DNA of 64,000 nucleotides from an uncultured Gammaproteobacteria bacterium (GTDB lineage: Bacteria; Pseudomonadota; Gammaproteobacteria; Enterobacterales; Succinivibrionaceae). Positions 2,022-60,487 of the stretch are shown here, piece after piece (positions within the stretch are counted from its first letter, which is position 1; each line of letters opens with the position of its first letter). The stretch lies in assembly GCA_900315395.1 (NCBI GenBank), contig OMZC01000107.1, forward strand, positions 573 through 64,572, written 5' to 3'. The notes below the pieces were generated by a model. That model was given only the letters and a program-made list of their open reading frames with translations. It ran no database searches and was not told where the DNA came from. Made by a program: the position numbers and the translations under genes.

Positions 2022-2108
2022 TGGTGCCGAAGATGGGACTCGAACCCATACGCTTTTAAGGGCGGCGGATTTTGAATCCGCTGCGTCTACCAATTCCGCC
2101 ACTTCGGC
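2022..2108 (-). tRNA. tRNA-Leu (anticodon CAA)
   Basis: The reverse complement reads GCCGAAGTGGCGGAATTGGTAGACGC...GGATTCAAAATCC...GGTTCGAGTCCCATCTTCGGCACCA. It has a 7-bp acceptor stem, a long variable arm, a T-loop GGTTCGAGTCC and an encoded CCA. Confidence 0.93.
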
Positions 2109-21837: not shown

Positions 21838-21857
21838 TCTTCAGACAGCTGATAGAA

Positions 21858-21882
21858 AAGCCTCGCTATGCGAGGTTTTTTT
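21858..21882 (+). terminator. rpsT intrinsic terminator
   Basis: CCTCGC-TAT-GCGAGG followed by TTTTTTT. Confidence 0.8.
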
Positions 21883-22093
21883 ATGGCCTTTTAAGACCGT
21901 TATCTTTTCCCATTCCGATATAACACTCCTCGCTTATACCTCTCTGCTACACCATAACACCTTAAGAACTTTTACTTTCTTCAAATCAATTATCCCCTCT
22001 GTCTTATTACCATCTCTGACATTTGAACAAATCAGCACTTGAAAAGCTATGTCATACAGTCAACTTTAAGAATTATTAGAAAGTTTATGATCT

Positions 22094-22236
22094 GAAAAAA
22101 GAAAGCGGTTTTGAGCGCATTTCTCAAAACCGCAAAAGAAAAGGCGTACCACCTTTTTAGAACACATGCAAACGAGTCATTTGCTTGCCTAACTAACGTA
22201 ATTAGTTTTGGTTAACTCGTGTTAGTCTATGCTAAC
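22094..22236 (-). ncRNA. Candidate ~140-nt small RNA (function unknown)
   Basis: Minus-strand TTGAAA-N17-TGTAAT (the plus strand reads TTTCAA at 22266-22271 and ATTACA at 22243-22248). An 11-bp terminator GCGGTTTTGAG/CTCAAAACCGC (22105-22133) is followed on the minus strand by TTTCTTTTTT. No ORF lies between them, and there are several internal hairpins. Confidence 0.35.
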
Positions 22237-22306
22237 CTTAAAATTACATTAAATCAATAGCTTTTTTTCAAATTTTTTCATTTTGCATTATTTTTGACAT
22301 TTGTTT

Positions 22307-22333
22307 GAACTTTTTAAAAGTAGATCACTCTAA
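22307..22333 (+). promoter_or_regulatory. Sigma-E (RpoE)-type promoter A: GAACTT-N16-TCTAA
   Basis: GAACTT at 22307-22312, an exact 16-nt spacer, and CACTCTAAG with TCTAA at 22329-22333. Compare E. coli rpoE P2 GGAACTT-N16-TCTAA, which carries the same CAC before TCTAA. Confidence 0.65.
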
Positions 22334-22339
22334 GGAATA

Positions 22340-22405
22340 TAAAGTGGTTAACCACAAATAATTTTACATCCCATAATAAACCTAGCTCTGCTAGGTTTTT
22401 TTTTT
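22340..22405 (+). ncRNA. Candidate sigma-E-dependent short RNA A (~65 nt), body unrelated to B, C and D
   Basis: Runs from the predicted TSS to the terminator AACCTAGC-TCTG-GCTAGGTT plus T10 (22378-22405). Contains the GUGGUUAACCAC hairpin. Convergent with the binding-protein gene, and the terminator can act on both strands. Confidence 0.5.
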
Positions 22406-22440
22406 ACTTTTTTCGGTGCTATCTACTTTGGGGTTGATAC

Positions 22441-23481
22441 CTATCTTTTGTAAGGCGGAGTGTATTTTTGCTTCATGTAGTTTTTAAATGATGCTATCTT
22501 GATGTAAGGAAGTAAGGTCTTATGATTCTCTGTCTTGTACCAAACAAGTTGAGTTACTTCCTCGTCAGTCTGGGCATCAGATGTTGCAATTTCATAACAT
22601 ACTTTAGCTAATGCAGAAAAATCTGAGAATAGAGTTCCTGTGGCACGACCTGCTTCTACCTCTTTTAACATTTCAGGTAAACCATCTACTCCAAAGACTG
22701 GAATATAGTGCTCTTTATCTTTTACGTCGGTGTTATAACCAAGACTCTTTAGAGCGTCTAACGCTCCTAGAGCCATAGCATCATTATTGGCTACGACAAT
22801 TTCAATATTGCTTATGCCCACAAGATCGATCTGTTTTAAAAGATCCTGTTTTGCATTATTACGATCCCAATTGTCATAGTTTTTAGAAATGATATTAAGA
22901 GGATAACCTTTTTCCTTTAACTTAGTTACGGTCATTACTGTTCGGTTAAAGGTATCTTGGTGGAATTTCTCTCCTTGTAGGATGACCATATCTAACTGAC
23001 CGTTTTTATTCTTATCATAGTGACTTACAGTCTTAAAGTAGTCATCGATTTCATCAGCAATAAAGACACCGGATTGCTCTGAATTAACACCTACATACCA
23101 ACAGTCATCATAGCTTGCTAGAGCTGAGTCAGCAGGTAATCTATTAACAAAGACTACTTTACTACCAGAATCTTTAGCTGCTTCTAAAACCTTAGGTGCA
23201 TCATTTACATCCACAAGATTCACTATGGCAGGCGATCCAGAATAAAGCCCAGTAATAATATTTTCTAACTGTTCTTGATGACGATTTTGAGCATCATAAA
23301 ACTTGAAGTTCAAAGGAGATCTTTCGGAGAGTTTGCCTAAAAATCTGGCAAAAAGATTGATGTAATTGTCATTACCATTGTAATAGTAAACATTGATATT
23401 CGATATTGCATAACATGAAGTTACAGTAAGTCCTAAAGATAGAGAGATAACTTTTAATAAATTCATGCAAAACCGATTCAT
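22441..23481 (-). CDS. Periplasmic sugar-binding-protein-like protein (Peripla_BP / MglB-RbsB-like fold), orphan
   Basis: Signal peptide MNRFCMNLLKVISLSLGLTVTSCYA and alternating beta-alpha pattern (VVFVNR, VVANNDAMALGALDALK, VFGVDG) typical of type I periplasmic binding proteins. Start chosen at the ATG at 23481, with AGGA 8 nt upstream. No ABC permease or ATPase gene is adjacent. Confidence 0.6.
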   Translation of the reverse strand: MNRFCMNLLKVISLSLGLTVTSCYAISNINVYYYNGNDNYINLFARFLGKLSERSPLNFKFYDAQNRHQEQLENIITGLYSGSPAIVNLVDVNDAPKVLEAAKDSGSKVVFVNRLPADSALASYDDCWYVGVNSEQSGVFIADEIDDYFKTVSHYDKNKNGQLDMVILQGEKFHQDTFNRTVMTVTKLKEKGYPLNIISKNYDNWDRNNAKQDLLKQIDLVGISNIEIVVANNDAMALGALDALKSLGYNTDVKDKEHYIPVFGVDGLPEMLKEVEAGRATGTLFSDFSALAKVCYEIATSDAQTDEEVTQLVWYKTENHKTLLPYIKIASFKNYMKQKYTPPYKR

Positions 23482-23872
23482 GACACCATCCTGCTTACGT
23501 TGACCAACGTTAGTCGATAACAATAGGTACGCATACCTAGTTTTATATTTTAGGTGATAATTTGCCTTTCTAAGGGATAAATCCCTATATATGCAAATAC
23601 AGTCACAGTAAAAAGTGAATAAAAACTTAGCTTAATCAAAACTTTGCTAAAAGGAATGATTATTGTTAAGAGAAATGTGATCAGAGATCTTTTGATAACG
23701 ATAATGTAATAGTTTTAACAACGCTTTCCAAACGGTCGTGTATTTTAGGTCTAAATTTGATTAAATGCTTGTAAATCAACAAAATTGCAAAGTATTGCAA
23801 GTAAAAATGAGATCTTATTTTAAGAATAATGAGGCAAATAAAAAAAATATTTGAAAAAATCGAAAATTTTTT

Positions 23873-23899
23873 GAACTTTTTTAAATCAAGGCACTCTAA
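23873..23899 (+). promoter_or_regulatory. Sigma-E-type promoter B: GAACTT-N16-TCTAA
   Basis: GAACTT at 23873-23878, a 16-nt spacer, TCTAA at 23895-23899 preceded by CAC, and an A/T-rich upstream region. Confidence 0.7.
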
Positions 23900-23904
23900 G
23901 AAGT

Positions 23905-23994
23905 ATATCAGTTAAGATTTCTTCAAGCTGGTGACTTTTTTCATTATATATTTTCCTCAAAAGGCCCAATAAAAAGTTATTGGGCTCTTTTTTT
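23905..23994 (+). ncRNA. Candidate sigma-E-dependent sRNA, paralogue B (~90 nt)
   Basis: Conserved body GUAUAUCAGUUAAGAUUUCUUCAAGCUGGUGACUUUUUUCAUUAUAUAUUUUCCUCAAAAGGCC. Terminator GGCCCAATAA/TTATTGGGCT followed by T7 (23988-23994). Confidence 0.65.
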
Positions 23995-24135
23995 ATCTGT
24001 GCTCTACTTTTTATAAGCTGAACTTTAAACTCGAACTTTTTAGAAAAAAACTTTTATAAATGAACCTTAATTTGGCTACAGATAAGACTTTCAGAATAAG
24101 TCATTAATATTTTTGAAAAAATGCAAAAATTTTTT

Positions 24136-24162
24136 GAACTTTTTAAGATTAATGCACTCTAA
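24136..24162 (+). promoter_or_regulatory. Sigma-E-type promoter C: GAACTT-N16-TCTAA
   Basis: GAACTT at 24136-24141, a 16-nt spacer, TCTAA at 24158-24162 preceded by CAC. Confidence 0.7.
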
Positions 24163-24167
24163 GTAGT

Positions 24168-24262
24168 ATATCAGTTAAGATTTCTTCAATGCTGGTGACT
24201 TTTTTCATTATATATTTTCCTCAAAAGGCCCGATAACGAGATGTTTATCGGGCTCTTTTTTT
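24168..24262 (+). ncRNA. Candidate sigma-E-dependent sRNA, paralogue C (~95 nt)
   Basis: Same body as B with a 1-nt insertion (CAATGCTGG versus CAAGCTGG). Terminator GGCCCGATAA/TTATCGGGCT followed by T7. Confidence 0.65.
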
Positions 24263-24376
24263 CTAGTAGCCTATACTGCTGTCAGCAAAAAGACGTTGAG
24301 TTTTCCTTTCATTATCGAAAAATGAATCATACTTATCAGTTTTTTTACCTCAGGATAAAAAATTTGAAATTATTTT

Positions 24377-24403
24377 GAACTTATTGATAGAACAGTACTC
24401 TAA
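24377..24403 (+). promoter_or_regulatory. Sigma-E-type promoter D: GAACTT-N16-TCTAA
   Basis: GAACTT at 24377-24382, a 16-nt spacer, TCTAA at 24399-24403 preceded by TAC. Confidence 0.65.
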
Positions 24404-24408
24404 GAGGT

Positions 24409-24500
24409 ATATCAGTTAGGAATTCTTCAAGCTGGTGACTTTTTTCATTATTTATTTCCTAAAAGGCCTGATGACAAAATGTTCATCAGGCTCTTTTTTT
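24409..24500 (+). ncRNA. Candidate sigma-E-dependent sRNA, paralogue D (~92 nt)
   Basis: Same body with a few substitutions. Terminator GGCCTGATGA/TCATCAGGCT followed by T7. Convergent with tilS. Confidence 0.65.
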
Positions 24501-24540
24501 ATATATTCAGGAAATGAACTACTAGAGAGAGTTCATAAGA

Positions 24541-25854
24541 CTAATCTTTAAGAGTGATCTTCAAAGGAGAGAGCTTAGCTTTTGAAGGATAATCTGAGGT
24601 TATAAAGAGATCGCCAAAAGCAATTACACCATCGGTGTCACGGTCTTTTACTAAGCAATGAACGCCACGTAACCATGCAGGTACTTCGTACTCACCAAAG
24701 AGTTTTTTAATCTCTCTACTGTGAGATCTTGTTAGAGGCTTTAATTTACTACTACCAGTGTAGTTAAAATCAAGAATGACCTCATCTTTTACAAAGTCAT
24801 TATCTAGTGAATACTCAAAACTACCTAGTCTTAAGCGCTCCCCTTTCTTTAAGGGATAGGACTTCTTTTGAGGTAATTCAAGCTTTTTTACAAGATATAA
24901 ATAATGCTTAAAGCGCTTTACTGAGTAATCGCCTAAAAGGATGTCTCCATGCTGATCAGCTGTACTTTGACACAATCTTAAGGTCTCTTGAACCTGATTG
25001 TACTCAGGAGGCATTAGAGTCTTTTCATTTAAGAATAGTCTTATGATACAGGTAGCAAGCGCTGTATCATTTACGTCAAACTTGCTGATATCAAGACGCA
25101 GGTTGTCTTTATCAAAGGCTTCAACATACTTTTCTTTAGCATAGCGCATTGCTAAATCATGTTCATAAGAGCACAGCTTAGCGCTTCTTAAGATAGAGCC
25201 ATCAATACCATTGAAGCGTTCCCTTAATAAAGGCAACACCTTTAATCTCATGAAATTTCTTTCAAATTTTAAATAGGTATTAGAAATATCAAAGACGTGA
25301 TCGTAACCTAAAGCTTCAATGATCTCGATGATCTCGTGCTTGGTATACTCTAGTAACGGTCTTAATATCCTGCCTCGGTTATCCTCAATATAAAAGCTCA
25401 TTCCAGATAAGCCATAAGGACCAGAACCACGCTTTAGAGCCAATAAAAAGTTCTCTACCTGATCATCTGCCTGATGACCTAAGAGCAATACACCATTGTC
25501 TTTAGCATTAGTAAATAAGGCGTTATATCTTTCAGCACGAGAGACTTCCTCAGGTGATCTGCCATTACCATAGACAATATGTAGCTTCGGAGTTACCAAA
25601 GGAGCATCTACTTTTTTACAGAGCTTTTGACAGTGAGCAAGCCAAACAGGATCATCGGCATCTAAACCATGGATGCAATGAACTGCAAGAAGAGAGTAGC
25701 GAGGATCTTTAACTGTAACAGCCTTACCGACTATTAGTGCTAAAGTTGAATCGGCACCACCAGATAAGCCTACGACCAATCTGCATGGTGCCACAGTATG
25801 AATAATTTTATCTGCAAGCTCATTTACAACTTGCAGAGCTTTTTCTTTTAGCAA
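24541..25854 (-). CDS. tilS: tRNA(Ile)-lysidine synthase (probable TTG start)
   Basis: PP-loop motif VGLSGGADS, an N-type ATP pyrophosphatase domain and a C-terminal TilS domain. It overlaps the accA stop by 7 nt. Confidence 0.88.
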
Positions 25855-26804
25855 TATCCGTACTTCATTAAACGAGAATAACGCTGTTCAACGATTCTGT
25901 CAGCAGAAATACCTGATAACTCAGCTAAATCAGTTTCAATACGCTGTTTTAGATTTTCTGCCATCTCATCGTAGTTACGATGTGCACCACCTAGTGGCTC
26001 TTTTACAACGTTATCAATTAAACCTAAGTCCTTGATGCGGTGAGCTGTAATGTTCATAGCTTCAGCAGCTAAAGGAGCCTTATCAGCTGATTTCCATAGA
26101 ATAGAAGCACAGCCTTCAGGTGAAATTACAGAGTAGGTTGAGTACTCCAACATATTTACTCTGTCACCTACACCGATAGCTAAAGCACCGCCTGAACCAC
26201 CTTCGCCGATTACAGTGCAAACTACTGGCACAGTAAGATCAGACATTAACTTTAAGCTCTCAGCAATAGCACCAGCCTGTGAACGCTCTTCAGCACCAAC
26301 ACCTGGATATGCACCTGGAGTGTCAATAAAGGTAATTACAGGCATACCAAATCTTTCAGCAAGCTTCATCAAACGCATTGCTTTACGATAGCCTTCAGGA
26401 CGAGGCATACCAAAGTTTCTTAAGGTACGCTCTTTGGTATCACGGCCTTTCTGATGACCGATTACCATAACAGGTCTACCATTTAAGCGAGCTAAACCAC
26501 CAACGATTGCCTTATCATCAGCAAATGCTCTATCACCTGCTAATTCATGGAAATCTGTAAAAATTCTCTGAATGTAGTCTAAGGTGTATGGACGCATTGG
26601 ATGTCTTGACAGCTGAGAAATCTGCCAATCGCTTAATGAAGAGAAAATCTTTTTGGTCAACTCAAGATTTTTCTTCTCTAACTGATTTAGTTCTGAAGTT
26701 AGATCAACTCCTGAGCTTGAATCAGCGCTAAGTCTTTTTAATTCTTCAATATGAGCTAGCAGATCTGCAATTGGCTGCTCGAATTCTAGATAATTAATAT
26801 TCAT
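25848..26804 (-). CDS. accA: Acetyl-CoA carboxylase carboxyltransferase subunit alpha
   Basis: [15 protein letters not shown] aligns with E. coli AccA MSLNFLDFEQPIAEL. Also has the motif [10 protein letters not shown]. The track start at 26879 is a TTG extension. Confidence 0.94.
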
Positions 26805-26884
26805 CACGTTGGATTTAACCTCACAGGTTTTCCTATTAGTCAATCGTTCAATTTTACTACAAAAGCTGAATTTAGACAAAAGTT

Positions 26885-27553
26885 CTACAGTAATGACTCA
26901 AGAGAGTCAGTAGAATTACCAAGATTTTGATTTTTTGCCTCTAAGACCTTTCTTACAGGACCATAGGTTTTTCTATAGCATGAAATAACAGGGAGCTCAT
27001 TTAAGAGTTCTAAATGCAACTTTGTAGGATAGCCTTTGTGCTTTGCAAACTGGTACTCTGGATACTGCTTATCAAGCTCATACATCTGTCGGTCACGTTC
27101 TACCTTTGCAAGAATAGATGCTGCAGCAATCTCAGCTACACGAGCATCCCCCTTTACTACCGCTTCACATTTAATCTCAATATTCTTGATGGTCTTGTTG
27201 CCGTCCACTAAGATTAAATCGCACTTTAAAGCCATGTTCTCATAAGCTCTTTTCATAGCCTCAAGAGAAGCATTTAAAATATTCATTTCGTCGATTTCTT
27301 GAGGAGTGCACTGACCGATGCCGTAAGCGAGAGCTTTTTCTTTGATAAGAGGCTCTAGAGCATCTCTTTTCTTTTCAGATAACTGCTTAGAGTCATTTAA
27401 TCCTGCAATAGGATTGTTAGGATCTAAAACCACACAGGCTGCAACCACGTTACCCATTAAAGGTCCGCGACCTGCCTCATCGGCACCGCAAACCTTAAAT
27501 ACAGTTGGATCAACGGGGTAAACAAAAGGTTCAAAGACTATCTTTTTAGCCAT
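26885..27553 (-). CDS. rnhB: Ribonuclease HII
   Basis: Motifs [17 protein letters not shown] and DSKQLS, in the conserved lpxB-rnhB linkage. Confidence 0.93.
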
Positions 27554-31298: not shown

Positions 31299-31892
31299 TT
31301 ATTTCTTGCTATCCTTGTTGTCTTTATTGTCTTTGTTCTCTTTCTTAGCTGGCTTTAGCTTTGAAGCTCTTGCGATAACTTCCTCAGAAATATCAACAGC
31401 ATCTGAAGCAAATACAACTGACTCACCACGAACTACTAACTCGATACCACGCTCTTTTGCGATTCTATCAATAGCAGTCTGGATTAACTTGCCTAGCTTC
31501 ATCTCAGCTTCACGCTGTCTCTTCTGAGAGTCTTCCTGTAAAGCCTGGCCCTTTAAGTCGTAATCTGCCTTTAATTTTGCTAATTTACGCTGAAGCTCAG
31601 TTGCCTTGTCGCCCTGTGACTTCTGTAATTCAGCTTCTAACTTAGCGCCTTCCTGCTGGATTTTCTGTAACTCTTCAGAACGAGGACCGAATTCCTTCTG
31701 CATAGCCTCAGACTCAGCCTTAGCCTGTGGAAGCTCTGCCATGATTAAACGGAGATTTACAACTGCAATATTGGTTGCTGACTTCTTAGCTGCCTGCTCT
31801 GTCTTACCTGCATCAGCAGCATCTGCTGCATAAGTTGAGGTTGAAATTAAAGCCATAGAAATTGCAGATGCTAATAATAACTTTTTTAACAT
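31299..31892 (-). CDS. skp: Periplasmic chaperone Skp (OmpH)
   Basis: Signal peptide followed by a long K/E/Q-rich coiled coil, located immediately downstream of bamA. Confidence 0.88.
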   Translation of the reverse strand: MLKKLLLASAISMALISTSTYAADAADAGKTEQAAKKSATNIAVVNLRLIMAELPQAKAESEAMQKEFGPRSEELQKIQQEGAKLEAELQKSQGDKATELQRKLAKLKADYDLKGQALQEDSQKRQREAEMKLGKLIQTAIDRIAKERGIELVVRGESVVFASDAVDISEEVIARASKLKPAKKENKDNKDNKDSKK

Positions 31893-31907
31893 TTTATACT
31901 CCTAGTT

Positions 31908-34307
31908 TTAGAAACTGCTTCCGATGTTGAAATTGAACTGCTGAGTATCATCACCGTCATACTTCTTAATTGCTTTAGCTAGGTTAAATGATAGAGGTCC
32001 CATAGGAGACATCCATGTTAAAGCAAAACCTATAGAAGTACGGTATTTACCAGGATCTGAGTAATCAACAGTGTACATCTTTGAACGGGTATCCCATAGA
32101 GCACCAGCATCAAAGAATACAGCTGATCTTACGCTGCTCTTATAAGCTTCTGCTACTAATGGGGTTGGAATTACAAATTCAGCTGTAGCTGTCCAGAATG
32201 CGTTACCACCAACTGAGGTTGATGACTCATAATAACTATCAGCAAATGGATACTTATATAGTGCACGTGGACCGATTGAGTTACGGCTAAAGCCTCTCAT
32301 CCACTCTGAACCACCTAATGAGAAGTTATCGAAGAATGGAAGAATTTCTCTTACGCCATTCTTTGATCTGTAACCATTACCATAACCGATTCGACCGCGA
32401 ACGGTGAATACGTACTCATGGTACATATCAATTGGGAAGTAATGGTAGGTTTCAGCAGTAGCCTTGTAATAGTGCATATCTGAATTAGGTGTAGTAGCAG
32501 TTAAAGATACTGTCTGCTTATTACCTGATGTAGGGAACACACCTTTATCAAGACTGTTATGAGTAATATCAAAACCTAACTTGTAGTCTAAGAAGTTAAC
32601 AGAACGGGTAGCATCCTTTGAATACATACTAAAGAACACATCAGACTGCTCGAAACGAGTACCGTTATTCTTAATCTTTGACTTCTCAATACCTAAATTG
32701 TAGTTAACAAACCAGTTTTCAGAAATTGGGTAACCTAGGTTGAAGGTAGCACCATAAGTATGGTTGGTGTAATCTACAACATCATCGTCATCATCACCAT
32801 CATACTTATCTAAGTATAATCTGCCACCTAAGCTTACGTTATCTACAGTAAAGTATGGATCGGTATAACCAATTTCCATATGTTTTCTATAGTCGTTCTC
32901 ATAAGAGGTAATGTTTGCTCTTGTACCCCAACCAAAGAGGTTGTTCTGAGAGATACTTGCCTGAATGGTTAAACCTGAGTCAGTACCAATACCAATACCA
33001 CCTGAGATAGAACCTGTAGGACGCTCTTTAACCTTGGTGTTGACGTTAACAGTATCATCAGTTGCACCAACGTTCTCTGTGGTTACATCCACAGTCTCAA
33101 AGTAACCGGTACGATTTAATCTGGTCTTTGATACTTCAATAGCTTCAGATGATAACCATGAGCCATCCATCTGTCTTAATTCACGTCTGATTACGGTATC
33201 ATCGGTAGAATCATTACCGGTAATTAGAACCTGTGATACATGAACACGAGAGCCTGGATTTACGTTGAAGTTTAAATCAACAGTCTTCTCTTTATCATTG
33301 TAAATTGGGAATGCCTTAACCTCAGAGTTTGCATAACCGTATTTACCTAAGATAGAAGCTAAGGTCTTTTCGTTCTCGGTTACACGACGCTGATTGTAAA
33401 TTTCACCTTCATGTAAGGTAATAGCTTCATTTAATTCAGCGCCATACTTTAAGGTATCACCGCGAACTGAGAATGAATGAACCTTATAACGTTCACCTTC
33501 ATCAATAGCGATAGTTAAGTAAATACCTTTTCTATCAGGGGTAAGTTCAACTGAGGTTGAATCAACTTTGAAGTTCACAAAACCTCTATCCATATAGAAG
33601 GTCTTTAATGCTTCCAAGTCTGCACGGAATTTCTGACCGTTAAATCTCTGGTTAGCCATGAAGTTCCACCAAGGAACATCATCACGTAACTGCATCTGAG
33701 CTAACAGCACATCTTCATCAAAAGATTTGTTACCTACGATGTTAATCTGCTGAATTTCAGCAGCCTTACCTTCGGTGATTTCAATCTTAATATCCACACG
33801 GTTTCTAGGTAACTGAGTGATCACGGTATTTACCTTAGCTTGGTACATACCTGATGAATGGTAGAAATCCTCTAAAGATTTTTGGATCTGATTTAGAGAT
33901 TGAGTATTTAAAGCTTCGCCTACGCGGATACCCTGCTGATTGATGATCTTTTCAAGATCTTCTTTTTTGATATTGTTATTACCAGAGAAGTCAACAGCAC
34001 CAATGGTAGGTCTTTCTTTTACGGTAACAATGAAAGTGTCACCATCACGTGACAGCTTAACATCATCAAAATCGCCTGTTGCATATAACTGCTGCATAGC
34101 CAGAGCGGTATTTTGAGGTGTCATTACATCGCCTTCTTTAACAGGCAATGCTAATAAAACTGCACCTTTTGACACACGATTCAGACCACGGATCTGAATG
34201 TTAGAAATAACCGGATCACCTGCAGCACTTACTGCTTGAGGAGTTGCAATTGCTGCTGCAACTGCTGCACTTAAGGCTGCTGTCTTAATAAAAGTTCTTC
34301 TTTTCAT
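31908..34307 (-). CDS. bamA: Outer membrane protein assembly factor BamA
   Basis: Signal peptide, five POTRA-like repeats and an Omp85 barrel ending in ...FNFNIGSSF. Confidence 0.95.
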   Translation of the reverse strand: MKRRTFIKTAALSAAVAAAIATPQAVSAAGDPVISNIQIRGLNRVSKGAVLLALPVKEGDVMTPQNTALAMQQLYATGDFDDVKLSRDGDTFIVTVKERPTIGAVDFSGNNNIKKEDLEKIINQQGIRVGEALNTQSLNQIQKSLEDFYHSSGMYQAKVNTVITQLPRNRVDIKIEITEGKAAEIQQINIVGNKSFDEDVLLAQMQLRDDVPWWNFMANQRFNGQKFRADLEALKTFYMDRGFVNFKVDSTSVELTPDRKGIYLTIAIDEGERYKVHSFSVRGDTLKYGAELNEAITLHEGEIYNQRRVTENEKTLASILGKYGYANSEVKAFPIYNDKEKTVDLNFNVNPGSRVHVSQVLITGNDSTDDTVIRRELRQMDGSWLSSEAIEVSKTRLNRTGYFETVDVTTENVGATDDTVNVNTKVKERPTGSISGGIGIGTDSGLTIQASISQNNLFGWGTRANITSYENDYRKHMEIGYTDPYFTVDNVSLGGRLYLDKYDGDDDDDVVDYTNHTYGATFNLGYPISENWFVNYNLGIEKSKIKNNGTRFEQSDVFFSMYSKDATRSVNFLDYKLGFDITHNSLDKGVFPTSGNKQTVSLTATTPNSDMHYYKATAETYHYFPIDMYHEYVFTVRGRIGYGNGYRSKNGVREILPFFDNFSLGGSEWMRGFSRNSIGPRALYKYPFADSYYESSTSVGGNAFWTATAEFVIPTPLVAEAYKSSVRSAVFFDAGALWDTRSKMYTVDYSDPGKYRTSIGFALTWMSPMGPLSFNLAKAIKKYDGDDTQQFNFNIGSSF

Positions 34308-34426: not shown

Positions 34427-35788
34427 CTAAAAACCTTTGATATCATTAAATACTGCAAAAATCATCATTGTCAGCAGTATTGCTGCGCCAAATGATGTAA
34501 GAACCATCTGGGTTCTTGCACTAGGCTCTTTACGCATTATTGCTTCATAAGCCAAAAATAAAAGCTGACCGCCATCTAAAACTGGAATTGGCATCAAATT
34601 GAGAATACCTAAGTTTACACTAATAGCAGCTAAAAAACTTATAAAGATTTTAAAACCGAAACTTGCACTCTCTTTTGCGCCCTGAGCAATTGCTATAGGA
34701 CCTGAGATATTGTCAGCTGAAATAGTGCCATTTGCCAGTTTATAAGTAGATACTAAAACAAGCTTTGCCATTGAAGCAGAATCTGCTACAGCTTTAATCA
34801 TGCCATCGACTAGACCATATTTAGTAGTCTTTCTAAGGCTTGGTATTGGCTCATACTCTGGAGCAATACCTACATAAGGTACAGTCTGTTTAGTCTTTTC
34901 AGAGTACTTGTTCTCAGGAATAACAGTTGTCTGGTATAAAGAGCCATCTCTTTTTACCACAAGATTCAATGGAGCGCCGTTAGAATCATGGATCATGTCT
35001 ACAATACGGAACCATGAAGTTACCTCTACTCCATTTACCTTTTCAATCTCATCACCTTTCTTTAATGATGCTTTTTGAGCAGGTGAGCCTGGCTCTACCA
35101 TGGCTAAAGTTGTCTTAATCTTGCCAATGCATGGCTCAAGACCAACCTTTTTAATTGGAGATTCGTTTCTGTTTAAAACGATAGAACTTGCATCTAATGA
35201 CAGAACTCTCTTTTGACCGGTACCTAAATCTGAAGATACAGTAACAGATGCTGGAGTGCTTGAGCCCATGATCTCTACTAACTCGTACATCACATCTTTC
35301 CATGAGGTGATATCTTTACCGTTAATATCTTCGATTAAGTCGTAATCTTGAAAGCCAGAGGTATAAGCTATTGAATCAGGTTTTACATCACCTACAACTG
35401 GTGAGAGTTGAGTGATACCTGACATATTGATATAGGTAAATAAAAGTACTGCTAGTACCAGATTAAAGAAGGGGCCAGCAAAGATAATAATGGCTCTTTG
35501 CCAAACTTTTTTTGACTTGTATGAACCTTCTGGTAATGAGCTCTTGTCTTCAACCGGAGTATTCTCGCCTTCCATCTTTACATATCCACCTAAAGGGATA
35601 GCACTTACGGCATACTCACAGTTGTCTTTGCCCTTTTTCTTAAAGAGGATCGGACCAAATCCTAATGAAAATCTAAGAACTTTTACACCACAAGCTTTAG
35701 CTGCTAAAAAGTGGCCTAACTCGTGAATAGTTACAAGTATTCCCAAAGCAATCAAAAAATAAAACAGACCACCTAGAATACCTAACAT
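34427..35788 (-). CDS. rseP: Sigma-E protease RseP (site-2 zinc metalloprotease)
   Basis: HELGHF zinc motif at the N-terminus, two PDZ domains and the motif NLMPIPVLDGG. Confidence 0.93.
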   Translation of the reverse strand: MLGILGGLFYFLIALGILVTIHELGHFLAAKACGVKVLRFSLGFGPILFKKKGKDNCEYAVSAIPLGGYVKMEGENTPVEDKSSLPEGSYKSKKVWQRAIIIFAGPFFNLVLAVLLFTYINMSGITQLSPVVGDVKPDSIAYTSGFQDYDLIEDINGKDITSWKDVMYELVEIMGSSTPASVTVSSDLGTGQKRVLSLDASSIVLNRNESPIKKVGLEPCIGKIKTTLAMVEPGSPAQKASLKKGDEIEKVNGVEVTSWFRIVDMIHDSNGAPLNLVVKRDGSLYQTTVIPENKYSEKTKQTVPYVGIAPEYEPIPSLRKTTKYGLVDGMIKAVADSASMAKLVLVSTYKLANGTISADNISGPIAIAQGAKESASFGFKIFISFLAAISVNLGILNLMPIPVLDGGQLLFLAYEAIMRKEPSARTQMVLTSFGAAILLTMMIFAVFNDIKGF

Positions 35789-36980: not shown

Positions 36981-37841
36981 TTAGAATAGCTCTCCGCTAA
37001 ATAGCCAAACCATAGTTAAAAATACAGGTACAGCAGCTAGCTGTGAATCAATACGGTCTAACATACCGCCGTGGCCTGGGAAGATTTTGCCTGAATCTTT
37101 AATACCAGCTAAACGCTTGAACATACTCTCTACAAGATCACCAATTACTGAGAAGATAATGGTGATTACAGCAGCGATAACTAATACCCACTGCTTTTGA
37201 GAATACTGACCGAACCAGCCTAATTTATCAAAGATATATAAGCCAATTAGAGCGGTGATAATGCCACCTGCTAAACCTTCAACAGTCTTTTTAGGGCTTA
37301 CGTTAGGTAACATCTTGTGTTTACCTAAGAATCTGCCTGCAAAGTAAGCGCCAGAGTCAGCACACCATACTAGAGCCATCACTGCTAAAACAAGGCATGC
37401 ACCTGCGTTATAGTCAATTGCGTAATCGCTTGAACGTAAAATTAAGATACCCTCTAAGAAAGGTAATAACATCAGAATTGCAATTACTGTATTTAAAACT
37501 ACATTCTGATGCCAAGCAGTATCTTTAGGGAATTTTAGTAATAAAGGGATAGAGACAAACCAGACGATGAGTCCTGAGGCTACTACATACTGGCTGAACT
37601 TTGGAATTCCTTCAACGATATATAAACCAGGATTTGCTACAAAGAAAGCAATTGAAGCTACAACAATAGCTACAATGATAAAGGGAATTCTTGACTTATA
37701 GCCTAATAAAGTTCCCATCTCGTAGGCACTTACAGCATAAATGAAAAGCGCGCCCATTGAAAAGATTTCAAAATTTGCTTTAAATAGCCATGCTAGCACG
37801 GCTGCAATTAGAACAACTGCAGTAATAATTCTAGTCAGCAT
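36981..37841 (-). CDS. cdsA: Phosphatidate cytidylyltransferase
   Basis: Polytopic membrane protein with the CTP-transferase signature SMFKRLAGIKDSGKIFPGHGGMLDRIDS. Confidence 0.92.
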   Translation of the reverse strand: MLTRIITAVVLIAAVLAWLFKANFEIFSMGALFIYAVSAYEMGTLLGYKSRIPFIIVAIVVASIAFFVANPGLYIVEGIPKFSQYVVASGLIVWFVSIPLLLKFPKDTAWHQNVVLNTVIAILMLLPFLEGILILRSSDYAIDYNAGACLVLAVMALVWCADSGAYFAGRFLGKHKMLPNVSPKKTVEGLAGGIITALIGLYIFDKLGWFGQYSQKQWVLVIAAVITIIFSVIGDLVESMFKRLAGIKDSGKIFPGHGGMLDRIDSQLAAVPVFLTMVWLFSGELF

Positions 37842-38592
37842 TATCCTTTTCCTTATTCTGAACTTGAGCTGATGTCATACCAAAACGGCGCTCTCTTGAA
37901 TTGAAGAAAGTAAAAGCTTCAATCAAATCCTTTTTATCAAAGTCAGGCCACAAGGTATCGGTGAAAAATAACTCAGCATAGGCTGCCTGCCACATTAAAA
38001 AGTTACTAATGCGCTTTTCACCACCAGTTCTAATTAACAAATCCACATCAGTTGGAACACTTAAGTTTTGACTGATGCTGTCCTCGTTAAGTTCATTAAA
38101 ATTTAGATTTTCTTCAGTGCACTTCTTTAAAAGTTTTTGGGTTGCCTGAAGAATGTCCCACCTGCCGCCATAGTTTGCAGCAATGTTCAGTTTCATTACA
38201 GAGCAGTCTTTAGTGAGCTCTTCTACTTTCTTAATCTGATCTTGTAAGATGGCAGGAAAACGAGTCTTATCACCTACGATGCAGGTTTTAATACCGTTTT
38301 CTTTTAATGACTTGCTTTCTTTTTTAATGGCTTGAACGAACAATGTCATCAGCGCATTAACTTCTAAGGCAGGACGTTTCCAGTTTTCGCTGGAAAAAGC
38401 AAAAAGTGTAAGCTCTTTTACACCTAATTGCGCAGATAAACTTATAACTCTTCGAACGGCGTTCGCTCCCTCACGGTGTCCACTGACACGCTGCTTACCG
38501 CGAGATAAGGCCCACCTTCCATTGCCATCCATGATAATGGCAAGATGACGAGGAGCAGTAATGCTCCCCGGAATATCACAAATATCTGACAT
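37831..38592 (-). CDS. uppS: Ditrans,polycis-undecaprenyl-diphosphate synthase
   Basis: Motifs HLAIIMDGNGRWA and FAFSSENWKRP. Confidence 0.94.
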   Translation of the reverse strand: MSDICDIPGSITAPRHLAIIMDGNGRWALSRGKQRVSGHREGANAVRRVISLSAQLGVKELTLFAFSSENWKRPALEVNALMTLFVQAIKKESKSLKENGIKTCIVGDKTRFPAILQDQIKKVEELTKDCSVMKLNIAANYGGRWDILQATQKLLKKCTEENLNFNELNEDSISQNLSVPTDVDLLIRTGGEKRISNFLMWQAAYAELFFTDTLWPDFDKKDLIEAFTFFNSRERRFGMTSAQVQNKEKDNAD

Positions 38593-41659: not shown

Positions 41660-41973
41660 AAATAATATCCTCTAAAATTAGGGTTGTGCCTCCACTGTTT
41701 CGCTTGTACAACCAAGTAAGAAACACATCTTAATTGGCACCCAGTACATAACGTTAATAAACAGTGTGCGATTTCTTAAAAACAATCTTGTGTCTTATCT
41801 AAATTTGACAGACACAATACCCCTGTGTACCTACACAAAGGCACGTTATTCTAACATGGATTATTTTAAAAATTTTGCCTTAATAAGAAAAAAAATCGCC
41901 ATTCCTTTCATCATTTGTCAGAAACTTACAAAAAATCATTATAATAAGCCATAGTTAACTAAGGATGAGCGTT

Positions 41974-60172: not shown

Positions 60173-60487
60173 TTAAAAAGGTAAATCGTCTGATTTAGAT
60201 GAGCTTTTAGCCTCAAGTTCATCTAAAGCATCATCAGTCGCACTATCTGGTAGTGCTTTATCTGATAATGCTTCATCAGATAAAGATTGCTGAGCCTTTT
60301 TACGGGCTACAGTAATCTTTTGTGAGAGTGAATCTAGCGATTTCTTACATGATACCGCCAGATCCATACCCTGACTGTAAACAGATATAGCCTCATCAAT
60401 AGAAAGATTACCTTCCTCTAATTTGGAGGTTAACTCTTCAAGTTGTTTTAAACGCTCTTCAAGAGATGTCATCTGTTTTGCAGCCAT
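60173..60487 (-). CDS. xseB: Exodeoxyribonuclease VII small subunit with an extended C-terminus
   Basis: MAAKQMTSLEERLKQLEELTSKLEEGNLSIDEAISVY is the typical XseB helix-hairpin. GAGGA lies 5 nt upstream of the ATG at 60487. At about 104 aa it is longer than the 80 aa of E. coli XseB. Confidence 0.88.
   Translation of the reverse strand: MAAKQMTSLEERLKQLEELTSKLEEGNLSIDEAISVYSQGMDLAVSCKKSLDSLSQKITVARKKAQQSLSDEALSDKALPDSATDDALDELEAKSSSKSDDLPF

Follow-up and report, generated by a model that had tools for sequence, protein, structure and literature searches.

Three tandem small RNA genes with RpoE-type promoters: a putative sRNA family of the Succinivibrionaceae

The stretch of DNA analysed here, called the window throughout, comprises 64,000 nucleotides (nt) of contig OMZC01000107.1 (positions 573 to 64,572, forward strand; assembly GCA_900315395.1) from an uncultured gammaproteobacterium of the Succinivibrionaceae, and has a GC content of about 38%. 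It contains three plus-strand units in direct orientation, at 23873-23994, 24136-24262 and 24377-24500, which appear to be paralogous genes for a small RNA (sRNA) and are referred to below as family 1. The layout of each unit is the same, ie an A/T-rich stretch, TTGAACTT, exactly 16 nt, (C/T)ACTCTAAG, and then the RNA body. The array is flanked on one side by a gene for a periplasmic sugar-binding protein (22441-23523, minus strand) and on the other by tilS-accA-rnhB-lpxB, also on the minus strand. The features of the array are as follows.

23871-23900, plus strand: promoter of copy 1, with TTGAACTT at -35 (GAACTT 23873-23878), a 16-nt spacer and CTCTAAG at -10 (TCTAA 23895-23899).
23903-23994, plus strand: sRNA copy 1, about 92 nt, predicted 5' end accurate to about 3 nt; 5' hairpin 23903-23935, single-stranded linker complementary to a ribosome-binding site 23936-23958, terminator hairpin 23963-23986, T-run to 23994.
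24134-24163, plus strand: promoter of copy 2, with TTGAACTT (GAACTT 24136-24141), 16 nt and CTCTAAG (TCTAA 24158-24162).
24166-24262, plus strand: sRNA copy 2, about 97 nt; 5' hairpin 24166-24199, linker 24200-24222, terminator hairpin 24227-24254, T-run to 24262.
24375-24404, plus strand: promoter of copy 3, with TTGAACTT (GAACTT 24377-24382), 16 nt and CTCTAAG (TCTAA 24399-24403).
24407-24500, plus strand: sRNA copy 3, about 94 nt; 5' hairpin 24407-24439, a shorter linker 24440-24460 (CAUUAUUUAUUUCCUAAAA), terminator hairpin 24465-24492, T-run to 24500.
24541-25854, minus strand: tilS, convergent with sRNA copy 3.

A first-pass annotation, made from the sequence alone, had described in each unit a GAACTT hexamer, an exact 16-nt spacer and (C/T)ACTCTAAG, followed by some 90-95 nt ending in a GC-rich hairpin and seven Ts. 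The promoter elements were borne out in all three units, and the bodies measure 92, 97 and 94 nt, with the T7 runs ending at 23994, 24262 and 24500. The near-identity claimed for the first ~60 nt agrees with the alignment of the three copies, in which the first ~57-62 nt of RNA are nearly identical and the mean column identity over promoter plus RNA is 87%. Copy 2 differs by a 1-nt insertion, its 5' hairpin having one additional U on the 3' side of the apical part, and copy 3 by two 1-nt deletions in the linker. Identical matches were found to copy 1 in one related locus (L038; L numbers denote related loci) and to copy 2 in two (L021 and L038).

The distribution of the family was determined by scanning one genome per species (185,579 species) with the pattern TCAGTT-N8-38-GCTGRTGACTTTTT(N)CAT, which describes the RNA core only, the promoter having been deliberately excluded. 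The scan returned 29 loci, 12 in Succinivibrionaceae and 17 that were unrelated, scattered chance matches. The former include Succinivibrio dextrinosolvens DSM 3072 and ACV-10, Succinatimonas sp. CAG:777, UBA6849, RUG171, RUG260 and several metagenome-assembled genomes (MAGs) of Succinivibrio. All the Succinivibrionaceae copies have GAACTT-N16-CTCTAAG at a fixed distance upstream, which was found at none of the 17 unrelated loci (0/17), and these also lack the hairpin and terminator features of the family. By this exact core pattern the family is confined to Succinivibrionaceae. A covariance model (R1), constructed from 21 distinct members (alignment A2), finds exactly three copies in the window at 103-113 bits (107.3, 112.6 and 103.1 bits for copies 1, 2 and 3, respectively), and it also recovered a third copy in L013 which the exact pattern had missed.

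The TilS protein of the window matched only gut and rumen metagenome sequences that were either labelled Succinivibrio or unlabelled, and this, together with the matches of the sRNA core in Succinivibrio and Succinatimonas, places the organism in the Succinivibrionaceae. Syntenic contigs were located through homologues of TilS. The same three-copy array is present in L001 and L006, where TilS is 84-89% identical, and a single copy occupies the same place in L009, where TilS is 63% identical. In total, three copies were observed in the window, L038, L020/L021, L001, L037, L006 and L013, and one copy in the S. dextrinosolvens lineage, L019, L025 and L029; the order tilS, sRNA, binding-protein gene is common to the three-copy and one-copy lineages. 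Four metagenome contigs (L002, L003, L007 and L008) end inside the array or at its edge. Such contig ends would be expected if near-identical tandem copies break short-read assemblies, and copy numbers in MAGs may be underestimated.

Some variation within the arrays was also apparent. Copies 1 and 2 of L006 (5339-5855, minus strand) have one terminator type (CCCGATATAAAAC[T/A]GTATGTCGGG), and copies 1 and 2 of L013 (7192-7708, plus strand) are nearly identical, including the promoter spacer, patterns which suggest gene conversion or re-duplication inside the array. In L004 (5330-5440, minus strand; TilS 84% identical) the copy-3 position beside tilS is occupied by a different sequence (GUGAGGUAUGUCACCCUUGUUGUUAACUAGGGUGACGGGAG...), which has only the 3' half of the copy-3 terminator (TTCATCAGGCTCTTTTTTTT) in common with the family and no GAACTT promoter. 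That contig stops 242 nt past tilS, and the sequence could be either a recombination scar or an assembly chimera.

The RNA bodies are built from a 33-34-nt 5' hairpin, an unpaired U-rich linker of 21-23 nt (GACUUUUUUCAUUAUAUAUUUUCCUCAAAA) and a terminator with a U7 tail. Each of the RNAs folds better than all 200 of its dinucleotide shuffles, with z values from -3.7 to -4.7 (-3.9 for copy 1). The terminator stems are GGCCCAATAA/TTATTGGGCT, GGCCCGATAA/TTATCGGGCT and GGCCTGATGA/TCATCAGGCT, each followed by CTTTTTTT, and a terminator scan gave four terminator-like sites in a 1.3-kb stretch where 0.4 were expected. The compensatory differences between these stems, which had been read in the first-pass annotation as a mark of selection on RNA structure, proved to be real. 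In the consensus structure, standard pairs occur in 98% of cells, compared to 31-54% after shifting the 3' partners by 1-3 columns; double compensatory changes are present at 6/12 terminator pairs, and the covariation score lies above all 500 shuffles. The basal 7-bp stem of the 5' hairpin is retained in all four subtypes, and the apical part varies in both sequence and length (12, 13, 14 and 18 nt). Two one-sided changes that preserve pairing (U.G to U-A, and A-U to G-U) were observed in the basal stem. It also contains three G.U pairs, which would be C.A on the opposite strand, thus fixing the plus strand as the functional one.

Between genomes the RNA bodies are 88-100% identical, the coding DNA of tilS 77-92% and the spacers between units 48-81%, values which show the RNA body to be under strong purifying selection, as the two promoter boxes also are. 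Copies and subtypes differ by indels whose lengths are not divisible by three, and no reading frame is shared on either strand, nor is there a plausible open reading frame (ORF) on the plus strand; the earlier argument that a 1-nt indel between copies excludes a common frame therefore holds. The proposal that the units are independent RNA genes under selection is likewise supported by their retention as one or three copies across Succinivibrionaceae and by a conservation exceeding that of tilS DNA. The sequence traits of Hfq-class sRNAs, ie an intrinsic terminator with U7 and a U-rich single strand before it, are both present.

The motif GAACTT-N16-TCTAA occurs at four sites in the window, compared to 0.13 expected, and none of 100 shuffled sequences reached four. 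Three of the sites precede the family-1 genes and the fourth (22307) heads a different small terminator-ended unit, considered below. Among 27 distinct upstream regions of family 1, (T/G/A)GAACTT, the 16-nt spacing and CTCTAAG are all invariant (27/27), and the middle of the spacer is near-random. The published consensus for the sigma-E promoters of E. coli has GGAACTTTT at -35 and GTCAAA at -10 (PMC1804206), and the boxes of family 1 match it. With (T/G/A)GAACTT, family 1 conforms to the -35 sequence GGAACTT typical of RpoE (sigma-E) promoters, which belong to group ECF02 of the extracytoplasmic function (ECF) sigma factors, and it also has their 16-nt spacer and -10 sequence TCNAA. The likeness to the rpoE promoter of E. 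coli to which the first-pass annotation had drawn attention is correct: GGAACTT-TACAAAAACGAGACAC-TCTAA, where TACAAAAACGAGACAC is the N16 spacer, was found in the rpoE leader (rseD) of 5423/5426 complete E. coli genomes, and the promoter boxes of family 1 are identical to it. Each of the three genes thus appears to be a self-contained unit, with a separate RpoE-type (ECF02, sigma-E) promoter and a separate intrinsic terminator. Within ~189 kb of DNA from Succinivibrionaceae, the sites with 16-nt spacing all stand in front of short terminator-ended units, which belong either to family 1 or to the second family described below, and the sole other match to the promoter motif, which has a 15-nt spacer, lies at 60220 of the window (minus strand) in the xseB/ispA region.

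Looser matches were noted at two places. The spacer between copies 1 and 2 contains two extra GAACTT hexamers (24021-24065, plus strand; GAACTTTAAACTCGAACTTTTTAGAAAAAAACTTTTATAAATG). In the second, the sequence after the 16-nt interval is TATAA, not TCTAA, with no terminator-ended unit downstream, and this hexamer may be what is left of a decayed promoter. A relaxed sigma-E-like motif, GAACTT-N17-TCAAA, occurs at 38094 (minus strand) inside the ORF at 37831-38592, which sits upstream of the ORF at 36981-37841, a dxr-like gene and rseP-bamA; the motif may have arisen by chance, or the envelope cluster may have an internal promoter here.

In all subtypes the linker contains CAU, then 7-9 nt, then UCCU. 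Its complement, GAGGAAA-N-AUG-AAAAA(A)G, combines a Shine-Dalgarno (SD) sequence, a start codon at the canonical distance and, after it, codons for lysine. The linker can therefore be regarded as the mirror of a ribosome-binding site (anti-AUG, 7-9 nt, anti-SD), from which we infer repression of translation initiation in trans. On balance it is probable that the three units are paralogous genes for a family of trans-acting regulatory sRNAs specific to Succinivibrionaceae and expressed from RpoE-type promoters. The first-pass annotation had proposed a new, triplicated sigma-E-type sRNA family, and the comparative data, ie the distribution, the invariant promoter boxes, the selection and the lack of an Rfam match, support this. 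The three tandem genes of ~95 nt would then constitute a new, lineage-specific family operating by a regulatory principle which is itself well established.

A mechanism can be proposed on this basis. Envelope stress would release sigma-E, in a pathway whose site-2 protease, RseP, is encoded in the window, and sigma-E RNA polymerase would transcribe all three genes together with those of the second family. The RNAs would probably be bound by Hfq through the U-tail and the U-rich linker. Pairing with the translation-initiation regions of mRNAs would involve the linker together with the 3' side of the first hairpin (invariant GCUGRUGACUUUUU(U)CAUWAU...UUCCU); the order mirrored by the linker, SD, 7-9 nt, AUG and AAAAA(A)G, is the start typical of exported 'MKK...' proteins. 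Ribosome binding would be blocked and less envelope protein synthesised, as with MicA, RybB, VrrA and MicV. Three copies would provide a higher dose, and the shorter linker of copy 3 may shift its target preference.

Several observations weigh against this interpretation. In the basal stem of the 5' hairpin no pair has changed on both sides and 5/7 of the pairs never vary, so the support for this stem is conservation, not covariation, and its invariance may reflect a function of the sequence rather than of the structure. The length of the U-run differs between subtypes (U6 or U5), which argues against one long orthologous target within a coding region. The seed CRCUGCUUUU, designated R1 and common to the sigma-E sRNAs VrrA, MicV and RybB (PMC6694218), is absent from the family, where the equivalent place reads GCUGGUGACUUUUUUCAU. 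In ~190 kb of related DNA no convincing target emerged, either from duplex energies calculated for all ATG-started ORFs of at least 50 amino acids (aa) in 18 Succinivibrionaceae sources or from fuzzy matches to the complement of the seed. When the translation-initiation regions of the window were ranked, the best clearly real gene was skp, at an unconvincing -14.2 kcal/mol. For the adjacent periplasmic-binding-protein gene, duplex energies in four genomes were no better than those obtained with shuffled sRNAs. Searches by tblastn for ompA, ompC, lpp and pal found none in all the DNA fetched, which thus has no outer-membrane protein (OMP) gene of this kind, and similar searches for rpoE (with the E. 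coli protein as query), rseA and hfq found none in the ~320 kb of reachable DNA (the window plus 38 loci, representing a few percent of a genome). RpoE and Hfq are taken to be present in these organisms, as in Gammaproteobacteria generally. As a separate observation on skp, its start (31870-31915, minus strand; AGGAGUAUAAAAUGUUAAAAAAGUU) is offset by one codon from the family-1 linker in the register of AUG and A-run.

The fourth promoter of the window precedes a candidate gene for a second sRNA family (family 2), and a further conserved block lies close by.

22307-22405, plus strand: family 2 sRNA candidate; GAACTT-N16-TCTAAG promoter at 22307-22334, then a unit of ~67 nt consisting of a hairpin (GUGGUUAACCAC), a linker (AAAUAAUUUUACAUCCCAUAAUAA), a terminator (22378-22398) and a T-run.
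22095-22245, minus strand: conserved intergenic block of ~140 nt, divergent from the family-2 gene.

The core of family 2, UUUACAUCCCAUA, is unrelated to family 1, from which it is separated by 1.5 kb, and has no Rfam match; its CAUCCC stretch faintly recalls MicA. Family 2 and its promoter are conserved in L001, L006, L013, L020 and L038 and diverged in L019, L025, L009 and L032. In L019 and L025 family 2 immediately precedes the gene of family 1. Two unrelated small transcription units with one class of promoter are what would be predicted for a dedicated sigma factor with an sRNA arm. The block at 22095-22245 is 78-96% identical in eight loci (L038, L020, L001, L006, L013, L032, L025 and L019) and ends on the minus strand in a strong terminator (GCGGTTTTGAG...CTCAAAACCGC plus TTTCTTTTTT, 22133-22105). 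At an Rfam E value of 1 or less its only hit was to ctRNA, at 17.7 bits, and it is probably a third conserved sRNA gene.

In the region of the family-1 genes no Rfam family reaches its gathering threshold, a check of the core which the first-pass annotation had left to later work. It had claimed no obvious similarity to MicA, RybB, MicL or VrrA. That stands for the first three, which, like MicV, were unlisted even at E values up to 10 when the Rfam models were run on 23500-24700 and 21840-22460, and needs qualifying for VrrA, whose architecture and linker are weakly alike. MicA, RybB, MicL and MicV resemble the family in their class of promoter (-35 GGAACTTTT; PMC1804206), in being short RNAs, and in the intrinsic terminator and U-tail, and their presumed role, to lower the synthesis of envelope proteins, would be the same. 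Two sigma-E-type families coexist here, as do MicA and RybB, or VrrA and MicV. However, the seeds of MicA, RybB, MicL and MicV are at the extreme 5' end, whereas the unpaired region of family 1 sits between two hairpins, and none of the four occurs in tandem multiple copies. The tandem layout is shared with OmrA/OmrB, PrrF1/PrrF2 and LhrC1-4, which are adjacent duplicated sRNA genes, each with its own terminator and its own copy of one regulated promoter, and with a seed conserved between copies, although their regulators (OmpR, Fur and LisR) differ from that proposed here and their sequences are unrelated.

VrrA is a sigma-E-dependent sRNA of Vibrio cholerae which sequesters the ribosome-binding sites of omp mRNAs such as ompT (PMC6694218), and family 1 could be a set of highly diverged VrrA orthologues, and hence belong to a known family. 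The VrrA model (RF01456) is a recurrent weak hit, at 22.7 bits for copy 1 (where it ranks within the first three of the Rfam hits below threshold and no other sigma-E-dependent family is listed), 19.7 bits for copy 2 and 19.3 bits for the S. dextrinosolvens copy. Both RNAs have a sigma-E-type promoter (PMC6694218 for VrrA), a 5' hairpin whose 3' foot leads into unpaired U-rich sequence (UG-CUUUUU in VrrA, UGACUUUUUU here) with an anti-SD sequence (CUCCU and UUCCU, respectively) and an intrinsic terminator, and both Vibrionales and Succinivibrionaceae are Gammaproteobacteria. However, none of these scores comes to half the gathering score (50), their E values are 0.2-1.4 even in very small search spaces, and generic terminator-bearing models (rli38, SdsR, Qrr, csRNA and McaS) score equally high. 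VrrA is ~140 nt with a long 5' hairpin, compared to the 92-97 nt of the family; it has the R1 seed where the family has GGUGACUUUUUU; it is not among the hits for subtype C; and it is single-copy in Vibrio, in a different genomic context, while the family is a tandem triplicate here. Orthology to VrrA is consequently considered rather unlikely. Family 1 would behave like a VrrA-type sigma-E sRNA but appears to fall outside every curated family.

A resemblance of another kind was found to the csRNAs of streptococci. These are CiaRH-dependent sRNAs, five in S. pneumoniae, in which two stem-loops flank an unpaired region with anti-SD and anti-AUG sequences (PMC3091779). The csRNA model (RF02379; threshold 57) gave sub-threshold scores of 25.2 bits on L024 (an S. 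dextrinosolvens copy) and 18.9 bits on L019, and was unlisted for the copies of the window. As in family 1, there are several paralogues with two stem-loops around an anti-SD/anti-AUG (CAU) linker, and their regulator is related to the cell envelope (PMC3091779). The consensus csRNA linker, ACUUUUUUCAUAAUAAUCUCCUAAU, is nearly the same as the ACUUUUUUCAUUAUAUUUUCCUAAU of the family, and the Rfam model aligns the two almost base for base. The likeness is functional only. The csRNAs belong to a Gram-positive phylum and are expressed from a sigma-A promoter bearing the CiaR direct repeat; that repeat (TTTAAG-N5-TTTAAG) is absent from both strands of 23701-24550. Convergence is the preferred reading of the likeness, a sigma-E sRNA and the Gram-positive csRNAs having arrived separately at a generic mirror of the ribosome-binding site.

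Taken further, family 1 could be a Gram-negative, sigma-E-driven counterpart of the csRNAs, acting as a class-wide brake on the synthesis of secreted and envelope proteins and not as a regulator of a few omp genes. Its invariant GACUUUUUUCAU...UUCCU would recognise SD, AUG and Lys-Lys codons, ie the 'MKK' start of exported proteins in AT-rich genomes, and family 1, family 2 and the candidate at 22095-22245 would together make up a small 'envelope-stress RNA island' where the rseP-bamA-skp-lpx cluster ends. This extension is speculative and we regard it as distinctly unlikely.

The RNAs could also be real but transcribed by another ECF sigma factor or by sigma-70, and so lie outside the envelope-stress response. 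The -35 boxes of several groups of ECF promoters contain AAC, and rpoE was, as stated, not among the few percent of the genome that could be searched by tblastn. However, the complete motif, TGAACTT-N16-TCTAA, is RpoE/AlgU-specific and is also that of the E. coli rpoE promoter, no sigma-70-like site was found on the plus strand in a scan of 23400-24700, and RseP is encoded in the window. Control by a sigma factor other than sigma-E thus seems very unlikely.

Transcription of the opposite strand was considered because the minus strand of every copy reads GAGGAAA, 7-9 nt, ATG AAA AAA. The product might then be a small peptide (SD, ATG and 10-47 codons, MKKVTS...), for example from a type I toxin-antitoxin repeat of the Sib/Ibs kind with the plus-strand RNA as antisense; the SIB_RNA model gives a weak hit on copy 3 (18.5 bits, threshold 56), and tandem repeats recall the SIB repeats. 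However, the predicted peptides are 10, 19, 10, 13, 12 and 47 aa long, and neither frame nor stop is conserved, because the apical inserts differ by non-multiples of three. The peptides are mostly hydrophilic (grand average of hydropathy -0.8 to 0.5), unlike type I toxins, no promoter-like site for the minus strand occurs across 23400-24700, the G.U pairs become C.A mismatches on that strand, and the conserved promoters and T-tails face in the plus direction. A peptide product is accordingly highly improbable. The Sib/Ibs-like repeat was rejected as a candidate, as ORFs of 10-47 aa in an unconserved frame do not correspond to the conserved hydrophobic toxin ORF of ~18-19 aa. Inert intergenic repeats (duplicated terminators, or repeats resembling repetitive extragenic palindromic elements) or an assembly artefact, as the contigs that break within the array could suggest, are already refuted as far as sequence data allow and retain almost no likelihood, given that the three orthologous copies recur in assemblies made independently in different studies, that cultured S. 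dextrinosolvens strains carry a single copy at this position close to tilS, and that the RNA is more conserved than neighbouring coding DNA and is preceded by a promoter footprint.

If family 1 is indeed a sigma-E-type sRNA family, it offers a first entry into the envelope-stress circuit of the Succinivibrionaceae, with two promoter-defined sRNA families of which one is triplicated. The members of this bacterial family, which is understudied but of ecological importance, are abundant in the rumen and in non-industrialised human guts. They are not known to have any described regulatory RNA, and a full-text literature search returned no paper on sRNAs of Succinivibrio. The motif TGAACTT-N16-CTCTAAG could help to chart the sigma-E regulon of these genomes in full, and alignment A2 and model R1 could serve directly as the seed of a new Rfam family. 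The family would also provide an example of the sRNA arm of the sigma-E response having been rebuilt with unrelated RNAs in different gammaproteobacterial lineages.

The array adjoins genes for outer-membrane biogenesis, with RseP, BamA, Skp and the lpx genes all encoded within the 64-kb window; beyond lpxB lie lpxA, fabZ, lpxD, skp, bamA and rseP. A mobile origin was examined by blastn against 72,556 plasmids and 50,697 phages, with no match, and a contig look-up with a shortened ORF of the binding protein also gave no match. The Rfam matches above threshold in the whole window were a t44 RNA and one tRNA, which are given here with rseP.

2025-2108, minus strand: tRNA.
34427-35788: rseP, encoding RseP.
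41683-41789, minus strand: t44 RNA upstream of rpsB, 45.9 bits against a threshold of 44.

In the cluster next to the array, rnhB and accA are directly adjacent (25848-27553, minus strand), and dnaE, which separates the two genes in the E. coli map, is absent.

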